From Chthonomonadaceae bacterium (GTDB lineage: Bacteria > Armatimonadota > Chthonomonadetes > Chthonomonadales > Chthonomonadaceae): a DNA stretch of 64,000 nucleotides. Where the stretch lies: positions 1 to 64,000 of the forward strand of contig DASRGZ010000001.1 in NCBI GenBank assembly GCA_035650735.1, written 5' to 3'. The notes beneath the pieces are model-generated. The model saw only the letters and a program-made list of their open reading frames with translations. It was not told the origin of the DNA and ran no database searches. The position numbers and the translations under genes are program-made. Positions 7,972 to 28,149 of this stretch are shown here, piece by piece (position 1 is the first letter of the stretch; every line of letters begins with the position of its first letter).

Positions 7972-10008
7972 TCAGGCTGCGCTGCGCCCGTCCGGGGGAC
8001 TCTCTCCCTCGCAAGCTTGCGCCGCACTCCTGCGCTGATCGGCAGAGAACCGTCGGGATTCGCCGCCCACATGCAGCGCCGGTCGCCGGGAGAGATTCGA
8101 CTCGGCCTGGCGGATCACCTCATGCGTCACCGGAGCCGTGTCTCCCTCCCCGAAGACGATATAGCGCACCAGGAACAGCAGCGGATTGCCTTCCGACCAG
8201 CTAAAGTAAGCGTGGGGGATCTTGCCGGTGTGATCCCGAACATAGAGTAGGAAGGCCGCAATCGCGTTGGGCACGGTGGAGCTCTCCGCGCGCAGCACCC
8301 GGAAGCGGCCTACCTGCACGCCTTTGACCTTCATCACCCCGGTAAACTCCGAAGCGTCGCAGACGCTCACCTCCAGAAACAGCACCGGCACGTTGGGCGC
8401 GATGTTGTTATCCTCCCGCTGCTCCCGCTCCTTTTCCTCGTACTCGCGCACGTCGCCCGTCTGCCGCTTGTTGGCGATGATGTGAATGTCGCCCTTCTGC
8501 GCCGCCTCCTCGATAAATTGCCGTGCCATATCATCCAATTCGATCTGCGTCACGCGCAGCTCCATCGAGCGCCAGACGCGGGAGACCAGAGAAGTAATGA
8601 CAATCGCCGCGATGAAAAAGGCGGCAATTTTGATGCCTTCGGGCCGCTCGATGATGTTGGCGATGGTGGTATAGAAGAACATCAGCGCGATAAGGCCGAA
8701 GGCCACTATTCCCGCCCGTGTCCGCTTGCGCCAGGCGGAGAGCGCCACCGCAATCGCCGCCGAGCTTATCAGCACCAGCACGCCGGTCGCGTAGGCGCCT
8801 CCCTGCGCATTGACGTCCGCACGGAAGATCAGGGTGACTGCGAAGGCGGTCGCCGTAAAGACCAGCACCAGCGGGCGCACCGCGCGCGCCCAATCCGGGG
8901 CCATGCCGTAGCGGGGAAGGTAGCGCGGGACGATGTTGAGCAGGCCGGCCATCGCCGAAGCCCCCGCAAACCAGAGGATGAAGATCGTGCTGATATCGTA
9001 GACCGTGCCGAAGCCGTTGCCCAGAAATTGATGCGCCAGGTAGGCCAGCGCGCGCCCGTTGGCCCTGCCGCCCTCGCGAAATTCCGCTTCCGGGATAAGC
9101 GTAATCGTCACGAAGCTGCTCGTGATCAGGAAGGCGCTCATGATCAGCGCGGCGGTGAGGAGCAGTTTGCGGGTGTTGCGAATGCGCCCCTCCGGGTGAT
9201 CGGGGTCTTCGCCGGGCCTGCCCTGCACCAGCGGCATCACGGCCACGCCCGTCTCAAACCCGGAAAGCCCCAGCGCCAGTCTCGGAAACAGCAGGAACGC
9301 CAGGGCCAGCATCATCAGCGGATTGCCGTAGCGGGCAAAGAGCGTGCTCTGCCAGTGGGCGACCACCTGGGGATTCTGGATCACCTGGAGAAAGCTGACG
9401 ACGACAACGACGGCGTTGAGCGCCAGGTAGGCGGCGACCAACAGCACCGCAATGCCGATCGCCTCTTTAAAGCCTTTGAGGAAGACCCCACCCAGGATCG
9501 CGATGAGAAACAGCGTGATGCCCACCTGATGATGGTGCAAAAAGGCCGGCGTAAAGGGATTTTCGACGATATGCGCGGTCGCGTCCGCCGCCGAGAGCGT
9601 GATGGTGATGATGAAGTCGGTGGCGACGAACCCCAGCAGGCAGAGCACAAACAGCTTCCCGGTCCACCAGGACAGGAGGCGCTCGAGCATGAAGATGGAG
9701 CCTTCGCCGTGGGGGCTTTCCTCGGCGACGCGCGCGTAGATCGGCAGCGCTCCCAGCAGCGTCAGCAGCACCAGGATCAGGGTGGCGATGGGAGAGAGCA
9801 TACCCGCGGCCAGGGCCGCAATGCCGGGCTGGTAGCCGAGCGTGGAGAAGTAGTCTACGCCGGTCAGACACATCACCTGCCACCAGGGATGCTCGTGGTG
9901 GCTCTTCTCCTTCTCATACGGCCCTTCCATCTCCTCAGGATGGCCCGTAAGCAACCAGCGCCGGAAGCGATCAGAAGGGCGCTTGGGGCGGATCATGATT
10001 TCGGCCAT
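7972..10008 (-). CDS. APC-superfamily amino acid / cation transporter
   Basis: [35 protein letters not shown], many TM helices; ATG at 10008 with CAGGAG RBS (the ORF track start at 10344 is too long). Confidence 0.88.
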
Positions 10009-10059
10009 GGTCAACTCCTGCGATCTCTGTGCCTCGGCTGCGAAGGGCCGCCAGGTAGG

Positions 10060-10209
10060 ACGGCCTCCGCATGCGGAGGGATAAGCTTGATTATGGCGGC
10101 TTGCTATGCCAGAGCCTCGCACGGCCTCCGCATGCGGAGGGATAAGCTCTCCCGCATCCGCACGAATAGGCGCTCCTGTGGATTGCCTCGCCATGCGGAG
10201 GGATGGGTC
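10060..10209 (+). CRISPR. Orphan CRISPR-like mini-array: three repeats, two 33-nt spacers
   Basis: ACGGCCTCCGCATGCGGAGGGATAAGCT identical at 10060 and 10121, degenerate at 10182; exact 61-nt period; internal hairpin; no cas genes in the window. Confidence 0.5.
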
Positions 10210-10393
10210 TTGGGCAAACAGAAAGGCAAGGGAGGAACGAAGAGAAAGCGCAACAGGGCCTTGTTGTCCCTTCCTTCCGAACAGCCTATACACAGGACTC
10301 GGATGGGACGGCGACGGTTCCATAGAAATCACCGCAAAAAGCACAAATCACCGGGGGATTTCGTCACGCAGGCCCTATTCCCTGCAACCCTAG

Positions 10394-10460
10394 AAAGGAT
10401 GAAGGATGAAGAAAAGCCCTGGCTCTTTTCTGCCTTCATCCCTCATCCTTCATCCTTATT
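10394..10460. repeat. Inverted heptamer repeats (AGGATGA)n / (TCATCCT)n
   Basis: AAGGATGAAGGATGAAG ... CTTCATCCCTCATCCTTCATCCTT overlapping the 3' end of the LysR gene; similar unit at about 45597-45652. Confidence 0.65.
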
Positions 10461-11362
10461 CCCTGACCACTCGTAAGGAACGTCCAGAGCGCCTCGGCTG
10501 CGCCCACCGGAGGCCGGTCTGCCCGACAGACCAGATAGAGGGAGCGCTTTTGGCGGAATCGGACGTCACGCACCGGGCCCAGCAGGCCCCCTGCCTCCTC
10601 ACGCCGGGTTGCTAATGAGGAAAGCACGGCGATGCCCAGCCCGGCAATAACCGCTTCCTTAATGGCCTCCGCGCTCGTTACCTCCACCACACGATCAAAC
10701 TTTTCCAGCCAATCACCCAGCAACTTCTCGGCCCCGGCGCGGGTGCTTGACCCCTTCTCGCGGAGAAACAAAGATTGATTGCCTAGATGTTCTTCTGCGA
10801 TCTTCTCTACCTGGCATAGCGGGTTATCCGGTGCGGTTGTTAAGCGCAGTTCGTCTTCTCCGATCCGCTCGTGGCGCAGCTCTCCCTCCGCTGCCATCTT
10901 TGGCATCTCGCCAAGCACGCCCAGCGCAACCTGGTAGTCGTAGAGCCAGGCCAGAACCTGGGCGCTGTCTCCCAGCATCAACGTCGGCTCGGCCTCAGGG
11001 TAACGCTCCTTGAAGCGGCGCAGCAGACCCGGCAGCAGGTACGCCCCCGGCGTGCTGGAGGCCGCAATTCGGACTTCGCCGCGTACCTGCCCGTGCGCTG
11101 CCTTCACGGCATGCTCTATGTCCTCGATCTGGGCGAACAGCCTGCTGGCATGCCGGGCCACGCTGTCGCCGACCGGCGTGAGCGCCATTCCGCGCGGTGT
11201 CCGCTCGAACAGAGGCTCGCCATAGCGGGCCTCCAACGCCTTGATATGGGCGGACACAGCAGGCTGGCTGATGCAGAGTTCCTGAGCGGCACGGGTAACG
11301 CTGCCGTAACGCGTGACCAGAAGGAAGACGTGAAGCGGATAGAGGTTGAAGCGCTCATTCAT
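10436..11362 (-). CDS. LysR-family transcriptional regulator (CysL/YeiE-like)
   Basis: GSVTRAAQEL-ISQPAVSAHIKALE HTH; AASSTPG-YLLP, REKGSSTR, S-EAIKEAV-AGLG. Confidence 0.93.
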   Translation of the reverse strand: MNERFNLYPLHVFLLVTRYGSVTRAAQELCISQPAVSAHIKALEARYGEPLFERTPRGMALTPVGDSVARHASRLFAQIEDIEHAVKAAHGQVRGEVRIAASSTPGAYLLPGLLRRFKERYPEAEPTLMLGDSAQVLAWLYDYQVALGVLGEMPKMAAEGELRHERIGEDELRLTTAPDNPLCQVEKIAEEHLGNQSLFLREKGSSTRAGAEKLLGDWLEKFDRVVEVTSAEAIKEAVIAGLGIAVLSSLATRREEAGGLLGPVRDVRFRQKRSLYLVCRADRPPVGAAEALWTFLTSGQGIRMKDEG

Positions 11363-11443
11363 AATAAGCAGATTATACCCGACGTTCGGAAAATTGTATT
11401 TGACTTATGGATTGCTTTGCCTTATTCTGTAGATAGGTTCAGT

Positions 11444-11525
11444 AATCCCTCTTCACTGTGTTAACGCCGCGCATCGGCGAGATGGGGATGACCACGATCT
11501 GCGGATAGGCAATCCCTCTTCACTG
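11444..11525. promoter_or_regulatory. 15-bp direct repeat in the LysR/rhodanese divergent intergenic region
   Basis: AATCCCTCTTCACTG at 11444-11458 and 11511-11525, each preceded by GATAGG. Confidence 0.45.
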
Positions 11526-11580
11526 GGTTGGCCCCTCTCCTGGAGCGCATACCTTGCGAGAGGGAGCCGCACGATTGGGG

Positions 11581-11925
11581 ATGTCTACCGGTATGTTCAG
11601 ACTCTGGAAAAAACCAGCGCCCGCTATCACTCCTGACGAATTGGCCCGCGCTCTTGCCGGGGGCGATGCCCCGCTGCTTATAGACATTCGCAACCCGAAA
11701 GAGTACGCGGCAGGCCACCTTCCTGGAGCCGTCAACCTTCCGCTGGCGGAACGTGACCCCTGCATCCAGACGCTCGACCGCGCTGCCAGGATCGTCTTTT
11801 ATTGAAACCGGGGGATCAGGAGCGATCAGGCCAGCCGTGCGCTGGCTGCCAAAGGTTTTCAGCAGGTATACAACCTCAAGGGTGGTATGAGCGCCTGGTC
11901 AGGAGAAGTGGAGAGGCAGCCATGA
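11581..11925 (+). CDS. Rhodanese-domain sulfurtransferase with in-frame TGA at the catalytic position (putative selenoprotein)
   Basis: LIDIR-P-EY-AGHLPGA-N-P ... IVFY-[TGA 11803-11805]-NRGIRS--A---L--KGFQQVYNLKGGMSAW; the frame completes the domain and ends at TGA 11923-11925. Confidence 0.85.
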
Positions 11926-12791
11926 TCCGAGCCGAGGCTCTGCTGCAAGCCCAGACGGTTGCCGCCGTGCTGGGAATGGTGATCCTCTGGCTGCTGGAAG
12001 GCTGGTGGCCGTTCTTCACCGAAAGGAAGGGGCGGCTTCGGCACGCGGCACCTAACCTTGCCCTGGCTCTGATCAACACAGTCGTGTTAGGCGCCGTGTT
12101 TGCCGGGCTGACGGCAGGGGCTGTCGCCTGGGCCGAGCGCGCTCACTTCGGGCTGCTGCGCGGGATACCGGCTCCGGTCTGGGTAAAAACGCTGGTGGCC
12201 CTAGTGCTGATCGATGCCTGGATGTACGCCTGGCATCGGGCCAACCACCGTGTCCCGTTCCTCTGGCGTTTCCATCGCGTTCACCACAGCGACGCCGATG
12301 TGGATGTGACGACGGCAGCCCGCTTCCACGTCGGCGAGATCACTTTATCCTCGATGCTGCGTCTGGCTGTGTTCCCGCTCCTAGGGGTGGCGCTATGGCA
12401 AGCCCTGCTTTATGAGGTGATCCTCCTGCCCGTCATCCAGTTTCACCATAGCAACGTAGCCCTGCCAGAGCGGTGGGATCGGCTGTTGCGGTGGCTGGTC
12501 GTCACGCCCAATATGCACCGGGTTCACCACTCCCGCTGGCGACCGGAAACCGACAGCAACTATGCCAGCATCTGCTCGTTCTGGGATCGGCTGGCGGGAA
12601 CGTTCCGGCAAGTCCAGGACACCCACGCCCTCCGTCTGGGGCTGGACGAGTGGGAGGGGCCGGAATGGCAGACCGTCCTGGGGTTGCTGCGCACACCCTT
12701 TGCCAATCGCGCCCGGATACCCTCGGAGCGGCAGGCCACACCCTCCCTCCCGACGCCACAAAGCCAGGACGGATTGACGGCACGCCGCTAA
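11922..12791 (+). CDS. Sterol desaturase / fatty acid hydroxylase family membrane di-iron enzyme
   Basis: His boxes WHRANH, FHRVHHSD, RFH, FHHSN, MHRVHHS, DSNY; ATGA overlap with the rhodanese stop. Confidence 0.92.
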   Translation: MIRAEALLQAQTVAAVLGMVILWLLEGWWPFFTERKGRLRHAAPNLALALINTVVLGAVFAGLTAGAVAWAERAHFGLLRGIPAPVWVKTLVALVLIDAWMYAWHRANHRVPFLWRFHRVHHSDADVDVTTAARFHVGEITLSSMLRLAVFPLLGVALWQALLYEVILLPVIQFHHSNVALPERWDRLLRWLVVTPNMHRVHHSRWRPETDSNYASICSFWDRLAGTFRQVQDTHALRLGLDEWEGPEWQTVLGLLRTPFANRARIPSERQATPSLPTPQSQDGLTARR

Positions 12792-12928
12792 CCGAGAATC
12801 CACACTACTTCCCATAGCGCCGCGGCAATTCATGGATTCGCCCGGCAACCCCCGTTCGGCTTCAAAAGGCGACAGGCAGATAGGTCGCCTCCACACCGGC
12901 GTATCTCCTCCCCCCCCCTCCCTCGCTT

Positions 12929-12974
12929 AATTTTATTCAAGACTATTGAATTTTATTCAAACCTGCGCTATAAT
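12929..12974 (+). promoter_or_regulatory. Sigma70-type promoter with overlapping operator-like repeats
   Basis: TTGAAT (12946)-17 bp-TATAAT (12969); AATTTTATTCAA twice (12929, 12949); palindrome TTGAA-N5-TTCAA. Confidence 0.7.
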
Positions 12975-13020
12975 CTTTAGCAAGCATCAACAGGCGAGGT
13001 TGAGTGGGGAAGAAGGGCTT

Positions 13021-13335
13021 ATGGCAGAAGATAGCCCGCTGCGCAACCTGCTGCGGGAACTGGATGAGACCGATCTGGAGTTTATGCTCCGCTTCGTACT
13101 GACCTCTGGCTCGCTCAAGGAGATGGCCCGCGTCTACGGAGTAAGCTATCCAACCCTGCGTGCCCGATTGGATCGGTTGATTGAGCGCCTGCAAGCCCTG
13201 CTCCAGAAACGTCCCCTCGATCCGATGGCGCTGCTGCTGGGAGACTTAGTCGAGCGGGGCGAAGTCAGCGGTTCCACCGCCCGGACTATCCAGGAACTGC
13301 ATCGTAAACTCATTCAAGCCCGAAAGGAGAGTTAA
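13021..13335 (+). CDS. DUF2089-family HTH protein
   Basis: F--RFVLTSGSLKEMA--YGVSYPTLR-RLDRLI. Confidence 0.85.
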   Translation: MAEDSPLRNLLRELDETDLEFMLRFVLTSGSLKEMARVYGVSYPTLRARLDRLIERLQALLQKRPLDPMALLLGDLVERGEVSGSTARTIQELHRKLIQARKES

Positions 13336-28068: not shown

Positions 28069-28149
28069 GATAGACACCCCCAATCGTGTGGATACATCTC
28101 AAAAGCGTGCGCTCCATGAGAAGCGTCAACACGGTTGGGAGGGATTACC
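28069..28149. mobile_element. MITE copy A (81 bp, diverged) with 8-bp TSD AAGCATTG
   Basis: Ends GATAGACACCCCCAATCGTGTGGA / CAACACGGTTGGGAGGGATTACC; TSD at 28061-28068 and 28150-28157. Confidence 0.85.

Follow-up and report, generated by a model that had tools for sequence, protein, structure and literature searches.

The window, the whole 64,000-nucleotide stretch of Chthonomonadaceae DNA analyzed here, carries a LysR-type regulator gene, a divergent rhodanese gene with an in-frame TGA, and a gene for a membrane di-iron enzyme (hereafter the desaturase) whose start overlaps the rhodanese stop. The features of the locus, in window coordinates, are the following.

10436..11362, minus strand: LysR-type regulator, YeiE/CysL/LysR_Se-like (PF00126 and PF03466), divergent from the rhodanese gene
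11360..11376, no strand assigned: CATAA-N8-TTAT box that overlaps the start codon of LysR, likely the LysR operator
11396..11428, plus strand: promoter-like site, -35 TTGACT (11400) and -10 TATTCT (11423-11428)
11506..11592, no strand assigned: dispersed repeat of ~80 bp, an imperfect palindrome, present as one copy in the 5' leader and containing ATG 11581
11593..11925, plus strand: predicted single-domain Sec rhodanese, 110 aa (114 aa from 11581), motif U-N-R-G-I-R-S, PF00581
11803..11805, plus strand: putative Sec-UGA at the rhodanese catalytic column, U71 (U75 counted from 11581)
11814..11827, plus strand: hairpin GATC-AGGAGC-GATC of the preliminary description, present, not conserved
11829..11847, plus strand: SECIS candidate, 7-bp stem, loop CGUGC starting at UGA +30 nt
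11910..11916, plus strand: SD-like GGAGAGG of the desaturase, read from the sequence within the last codons of the rhodanese
11922..12791, plus strand: membrane di-iron enzyme of the fatty acid hydroxylase/sterol desaturase family, 289 aa, PF04116

The rhodanese frame reads IVFY, TGA (11803-11805), and NRGIRSDQ, continues to LKGGMSAW, and ends at TGA 11923-11925, which overlaps the desaturase ATG at 11922 as ATGA. The preliminary description had proposed this hidden frame past 11805 and the overlap, and the sequence bears both out. With TGA read through as U, the Pfam Rhodanese profile is matched over positions 1-101 of 102 (E 1.4e-24). The TGA had also been placed at the catalytic Cys of the rhodanese, and 113 tblastn alignments covering this column agree: 105 have TGC or TGT, 8 have TGA, and none has another codon, so that both members of the suggested Cys/TGA pairing are seen. 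Five of the eight TGA alignments are repeat fetches of the source genome (G000) or of a second genome with the module (G001), and three come from other organisms. The codon is covered in Logan contigs from four runs in three studies with identical letters, the source DNA perhaps being included.

To avoid selecting for TGA, we keyed the survey of the three-gene module on the desaturase, which was matched in 3 of 68 genomes of the class and 14 of 401 genomes of the phylum. In the four genomes with at least 59% desaturase identity (G000, G001, G087, and G112), a TGA rhodanese lies directly upstream and a LysR gene is divergent. From metagenomes, the best 80 of 439 confirmed desaturase loci were scanned. 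L169 and L170, which duplicate G000 and G001, were removed, leaving 78; among these, 67 have at least 350 nt of upstream DNA, and 13 carry the Sec rhodanese. The module thus totals 17 loci, which fall into four groups at 70% desaturase identity, and the divergent LysR gene is present in all 15 loci having enough DNA. The linkage to both partners that had been proposed for checking is therefore conserved, and LysR, Sec rhodanese, and desaturase very probably form, from this gene order, a co-regulated unit. Its distribution is patchy (3 of 401 phylum genomes).

TGA stands at the catalytic column in all 17 module loci, whose rhodaneses share 36-57% identity with the window protein and have an invariant Gly at U+3 (UxxG motif). 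A TGA unique to this strain, among orthologs all carrying TGC or TGT, is thus not what we find, and no Cys form of this rhodanese clade was found among the sampled loci and database proteins. Across module loci, pN/pS is 0.45 after the UGA and 0.46 before it, with 0.38 for codons 16-33, which lie past the hairpins (uncorrected proportions from non-independent pairs); pN is below pS in 136 of 136 pairs, which are likewise non-independent. Judged from these substitution patterns, the post-UGA codons of the module rhodaneses are under purifying selection. A codon model applied to the post-UGA stretch was uninformative (window score -3.5).

Databases hold the window rhodanese as a shortened 76-aa product (P0002). 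The six nearest database proteins, the window's own aside, are 73-91% identical to a module member, and all stop at the Tyr before the UGA; among full-length proteins, none of 113 exceeds 55% identity (best 120 of 1886). Since gene callers end its members at the UGA, this subfamily is hidden in protein databases. A single-protein search together with a scan of genome contigs returned no close rhodanese ortholog, and the best 150 matches of a profile search in a 1.84-billion library were multi-domain rhodaneses only. A self-BLAST of the source genome for Cys/TGA pairs was swamped by repeats, and a fold computed from four sequences had a low pLDDT (52.7). A Foldseek search gave no match at E<=0.001.

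A search for selA, selB, selC, and selD, which had been suggested as a check, found all four in the source genome (97.6% complete). SelA (E 1e-135), the SelB wing-3 domain (E 5e-18, in a 683-aa frame), and SelD (E 8e-112, Sec-type, with an in-frame TGA of its own) score over the curated cut-offs, as does the tRNA-Sec, which has 71.7 bits and anticodon TCA. The tRNA-Sec gene (L167:6922-7019, on G000 C198) follows selD at a distance of ~1.5 kb, whereas other contigs carry selA and selB. selA and tRNA-Sec also occur in the module genomes G001, G087, and G112. However, 212 of the 401 genomes sampled from the phylum carry selA, our phylum-wide marker for Sec machinery, and the co-occurrence of module and machinery in four of four genomes therefore carries little weight.

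The source genome has about 20 further genes with a TGA in a redox motif, picked by eye as candidate selenoprotein genes; 11 of the 20 lie within family matches having an internal TGA (one below the cut-off), and 9 were chosen by motif alone. Sites in G000 include C27:7031, C79:5547, C210:16160, C142:34616, C220:13941, C143:707, C152:17543, C177:26809, C204:12553, and C224:42459, and C79 has two candidate sites less than 400 nt apart. We take the candidates to be of thioredoxin and peroxiredoxin types, heavy-metal-binding-like UxxC and CxxU, AhpD-like CxxU, DsbA-like, and CU-motif proteins.

The published model of bacterial SECIS elements, as given in passages of PMC13188914, has a spacing of 16-37 nt and an energy of -7.5 kcal/mol or below. 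The hairpin GATC-AGGAGC-GATC, proposed in the preliminary description as the SECIS, exists but falls outside both limits, its loop starting at UGA +12 nt and its energy being -6.0 kcal/mol, and its pairing (48% of cells in 13 orthologs, 56% in four loci including the window) is at shuffle level; we rejected it. The hairpin at 11829-11847 (energy -12.5 with its extension) falls within the published limits under a loose version of the rule. That version was rejected as evidence, as 81 of 150 and 76 of 150 controls also pass.

After viewing the sequences, we split the module loci into two hairpin groups. In the group of 13, a 7-bp stem with a GGC loop at UGA +23 nt is paired in 90 of 91 cells (98.9%), with two pairs showing double changes (covariation), and 2 of 500 shuffles were as good. 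In the group of four, which includes the window, a 7-bp stem with a 5-nt loop starting with CG at +30 is paired in 28 of 28 cells, a statistically weak result (130 of 500 shuffles as good). A sharper rule, set post hoc (unbroken stem of at least 6 bp, G[GU] loop, 15-37 nt), selects the window and 16 of 17 module loci (the exception being G001), as well as 13 of the 20 other candidates in G000, compared with about 4-7% of controls (918 of 20,632 Cys codons, 85 of 1780 TGA ends, and 9 of 131 Cys rhodaneses). Given the hairpin groups and this rule, we consider 11829-11847 the candidate SECIS of the window rhodanese, in a position that would be shifted within the family. The sharper rule also selects the hairpins of three of three unrelated TGA rhodaneses (L032, L067, and L101, in two Deltaproteobacteria MAGs and one Chloroflexota MAG), around which the fetched DNA showed no module. 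An Rfam scan of 10000-13200 gave three sub-threshold miRNA matches only.

Because of the machinery, the orthologs, the selection, and the SECIS covariation, selenocysteine decoding of UGA 11803 is strongly supported, and on this comparative evidence we hold it to be nearly certain.

The start of the rhodanese at 11581, as first listed, is doubtful. ATG 11581 sits in the dispersed repeat, which favors ATG 11593; the latter gives MFRLWKK and 70 residues before U, matches the starts of most orthologs, and is probably the true start. Elsewhere in G000 the repeat occurs 17 times at E<1e-5 with 74-83% identity (of 26 other blastn rows) and is absent from 10 aligned orthologs. It is MITE-like, with another copy at window 28071-28149, and the source genome carries several further intergenic repeat families. 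The promoter-like site scores 9 of 12 in the scan and is conserved in 11 of 11 aligned loci, its -35 overlapping a second conserved box. A gap of 6-7 nt separates the -10 hexamer from the ATG in the 10 aligned orthologs, whose transcripts look leaderless; in the source genome ~160 nt, the repeat included, lie between the -10 and the start, and the repeat may change expression there. None of the 11 aligned loci with the window's LysR lineage varies in the half-sites CATAA and TTAT, and the box is likely the LysR operator.

The regulator had been described as CysL-like, and its membership in the CysL/YeiE/LysR_Se group is supported by resemblance. Its best NCBIfam match is NF040786 (LysR_Sec_metab; 207.7 bits, cut-off 250), of which it is the top-scoring match in the source genome. 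The same model is the best match of 11 of the 12 LysR copies scanned, all 12 being under the cut-off of 250 (193-239 bits). Against NF040889 (YeiE) the window protein scores 167 bits (cut-off 480), and the structure nearest to its effector domain is that of solved YeiE. The sulfite-pocket residues named in passages of PMC8931317 include S96/S97, N126, S127, E145, R191, S195, and T197. Of these, S96/S97, S127, R191, S195, and T197 correspond to S102/S103, S133, R201, S205, and T207 (6 of 8 identical), N126 is replaced by D132, and E145 aligns with E152 with a one-residue gap. The Glu152 column holds Glu in 9 of 11 aligned LysRs, Asp in one, and Ala in L192. Two LysR lineages occur among the module loci. 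The top LysR_Sec_metab score, 239 bits, belongs to L192:1828-2688, the protein with Ala at the pocket glutamate; in L192 and the near-identical L193, the LysR gene lies directly before the desaturase, without a rhodanese.

The desaturase matches PF04116 at E 7e-29 (101.4 bits, cut-off 31). Ten histidines (H105, H109, H118, H121, H122, H136, H176, H199, H202, and H203) are invariant in 59 of 59 rows. The predicted model has a pLDDT of 91.7, and its best fold match, Scs7p, is modest (Z 6.3, rmsd 4.9, 171 aligned). The match to the ornithine-lipid hydroxylase OlsE is weak (73 bits, cut-off 475), and a PDB sequence search gave no match at E<=1.

A rhodanese lies no more than 3 kb away in 28 of the 78 desaturase loci (from the best 80 of 439); 13 are Sec and 15 are Cys rhodaneses of other subfamilies (two of these matches weak). 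No rhodanese lies within the fetched DNA of the other 50, and the partnership of desaturase and rhodanese is therefore not obligatory. A single origin of the module is not evident on a quick tree covering 94 of 97 rows, where the Sec-linked desaturases take three label changes; another tree covered 81 of 97 rows. A more distant desaturase sits amid rhodanese fusions in two Betaproteobacterial loci.

Other neighbors also recur. SAM methyltransferases lie downstream in three module loci, and a cysteine desulfurase is among the other recurrent neighbors. Judged from scanned representatives, 7 of the 78 loci (best 80 of 439) cluster with ArsS and 7 with a TIGR04283-like glycosyltransferase (174.5 bits, cut-off 182); such clusters are L180, L181, L184, L189, L208, L210, L226, L229, and L235, and a link to arsenolipids or arsenosugars is possible. 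No ArsS over the cut-off was found in the source genome, which has a TIGR04283 gene elsewhere. In G001 (L110:5448-10807), CusB/CusA-like heavy-metal efflux genes follow the module. On the minus strand of the window, 7972-10011 encodes an APC-like amino acid transporter of ~680 aa, for which neither Pfam nor NCBIfam gave a match; its Atlas look-alikes are mostly from Actinomycetota, and the other module loci do not share it.

We propose that the three genes are a unit for handling reactive sulfur or selenium. SelB and the hairpin at 11829-11847 very probably decode UGA 11803 to give a single-domain rhodanese with a catalytic Sec. The YeiE/LysR_Se-like regulator would bind an oxyanion of the sulfite or selenite type and activate the divergent promoter. 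The rhodanese Sec would then take up and pass on sulfane sulfur or selenium, and the co-expressed di-iron enzyme would serve the same detoxification or trafficking response, probably on a lipid-like substrate, its translation aided by ordinary termination-reinitiation. We consider such a role in oxyanion-induced sulfur/selenium handling somewhat probable.

A second explanation makes the Sec gene a leader for selenium-gated expression: without selenium, translation would end at the UGA, with 116 nt still to go to the start of the desaturase, and the latter would be translated or transcribed less. The tight junction speaks for it: in 16 of 17 loci the desaturase starts -14 to +18 nt from the stop of the rhodanese, with overlap in 12 (no start was assigned in L179). 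So does the lack of a Cys version among the 17 module loci. Leaderless-looking transcripts would place the Sec gene first, and there is a precedent in Treponema primitia fdhF, which, according to passages of PMC3892789, shows selenium-dependent polarity downstream of a UGA that E. coli fdhF does not. However, an SD-like site precedes the desaturase in 14 of 16 loci, and the window start is not occluded, its predicted unpaired value being 0.55 compared with 0.47 +/- 0.12 for 68 other ATGA overlaps in the genome. Rho loading sites are C-rich, whereas the post-UGA RNA has more G than C in 17 of 17 loci, and no intrinsic terminator was found in 11300-13100. Moreover, the rhodanese is under selection and retains its complete enzyme fold, no Sec rhodanese occurs in 54 of the 67 desaturase loci (best 80 of 439) whose upstream DNA is readable, and in L192/L193 the LysR gene directly precedes the desaturase.

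Because the desaturase has its own SD, strict selenium gating is unlikely, and we put the chance of the gated reading at roughly one in five, a little above that. Of the coupling and selenium dependence suggested in the preliminary description, the tight junction stands, the SD-like sites and the unoccluded start argue against strict dependence, and a desaturase whose translation depends on UGA read-through is possible. Gating is in part compatible with sulfur/selenium handling. A joint reading, in which an oxyanion-sensing LysR opens a transcript that is leaderless in most members and headed by an obligatory Sec rhodanese, the desaturase is made only with inducer plus usable selenium, and both proteins act on a substrate containing sulfur, selenium, or arsenic, is in our view doubtful; if true, it would imply a chemistry not known for the enzyme family of the desaturase. 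Were gating itself true, the locus would be a compact natural two-input switch responding to inducer and selenium.

A third explanation is that LysR induces a sulfurtransferase and an unrelated membrane-lipid hydroxylase/desaturase for envelope remodeling under stress, in one regulon and with no shared chemistry. The standard His boxes of lipid-modifying enzymes, Scs7p as the nearest fold, the weak OlsE match (73 bits against 475), and the many contexts of the desaturase without a rhodanese are consistent with separate jobs. Nevertheless, at least three rhodanese subfamilies recur beside the desaturase, in 28 of 78 loci (best 80 of 439) and the two Betaproteobacterial loci, and this recurrence suggests a functional tie; we judge separate jobs improbable. 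Lastly, a rhodanese pseudogene whose TGA arose by nonsense mutation or through faulty assembly, as the 76-aa database product and the repeat in the leader might suggest, is extremely improbable in view of the TGA in 17 of 17 divergent orthologs, the purifying selection 3' of the UGA, the conserved hairpin, the complete Sec machinery, and the identical letters in four runs.

Sec-containing rhodaneses had been said to be reported already, and this holds: Table 1 of PMC13188914 lists UxxG rhodanese selenoproteins (PF00581) as forms 2 and 4, predicted families without tested function, with MBM9537886.1 and MCY3690685.1 as reference sequences. Passages of PMC9312934 and PMC1976440 also contain Sec rhodaneses, and according to a passage of PMC8538045, selenium can be bound by rhodanese, though what this means physiologically is unclear. 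The window rhodanese is below the cut-off of every NCBIfam model it matches. Form 3 (NF041203; 43.7 against 115 bits) and TsoB (NF045694; 35.3 against 805 bits) were rejected as assignments, the CxU and UxxxxU motifs being absent. The word "desaturase" is absent from the main text of PMC13188914 and PMC5322559, module terms had no match in PMC12880088, and no published linkage of LysR, Sec rhodanese, and desaturase was found in the literature searched (mostly open-access, as listings and abstract openings). Within that literature, the earlier view that this is not a described module is supported; the kind of selenoprotein, a UxxG Sec rhodanese, is known, and the three-gene module is apparently undescribed. 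A conserved operon with regulator, operator, promoter, and partner enzyme gives a Sec rhodanese family testable inducers and a phenotype, and it points to an unstudied bacterial subfamily of the desaturase family that recurs with rhodaneses and ArsS.

With forms 2 and 4 of PMC13188914, compared by domain and motif, the locus shares the rhodanese domain, a single catalytic Sec, the UxxG motif, and the Cys/TGA pairing, but its conserved setting between LysR and desaturase goes unmentioned in the passages of that paper. Like LysR_Se/HrsM (NF040786; passages of PMC5322559), the best match of 11 of 12 copies, its regulator adjoins a selenoprotein gene in genomes that decode Sec where this is testable, but the window LysR is below the cut-off and selA, selB, and selD are not neighbors, lying on other G000 contigs. 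YeiE (PDB 7ERP and 8SBH; passages of PMC8931317) is the nearest effector domain, with 6 of 8 pocket residues shared and Glu145 shifted by one residue, whereas the window protein, a predicted sensor, has Asp for Asn126 and adjoins a Sec rhodanese and a desaturase. In T. primitia fdhF-Sec (passages of PMC3892789) as in this locus, downstream expression could be uncoupled from translation at a UGA; in the former the effect was measured and lies within one gene, whereas here it is predicted and concerns a separate gene with its own SD. Finally, the desaturase has the invariant His boxes and membrane helices of the fatty acid hydroxylase superfamily (PF04116; Scs7p and OlsE) and Scs7p as its best fold, but it belongs to a bacterial subfamily without a close solved relative, one that is set apart by its recurrent rhodanese and ArsS neighbors.
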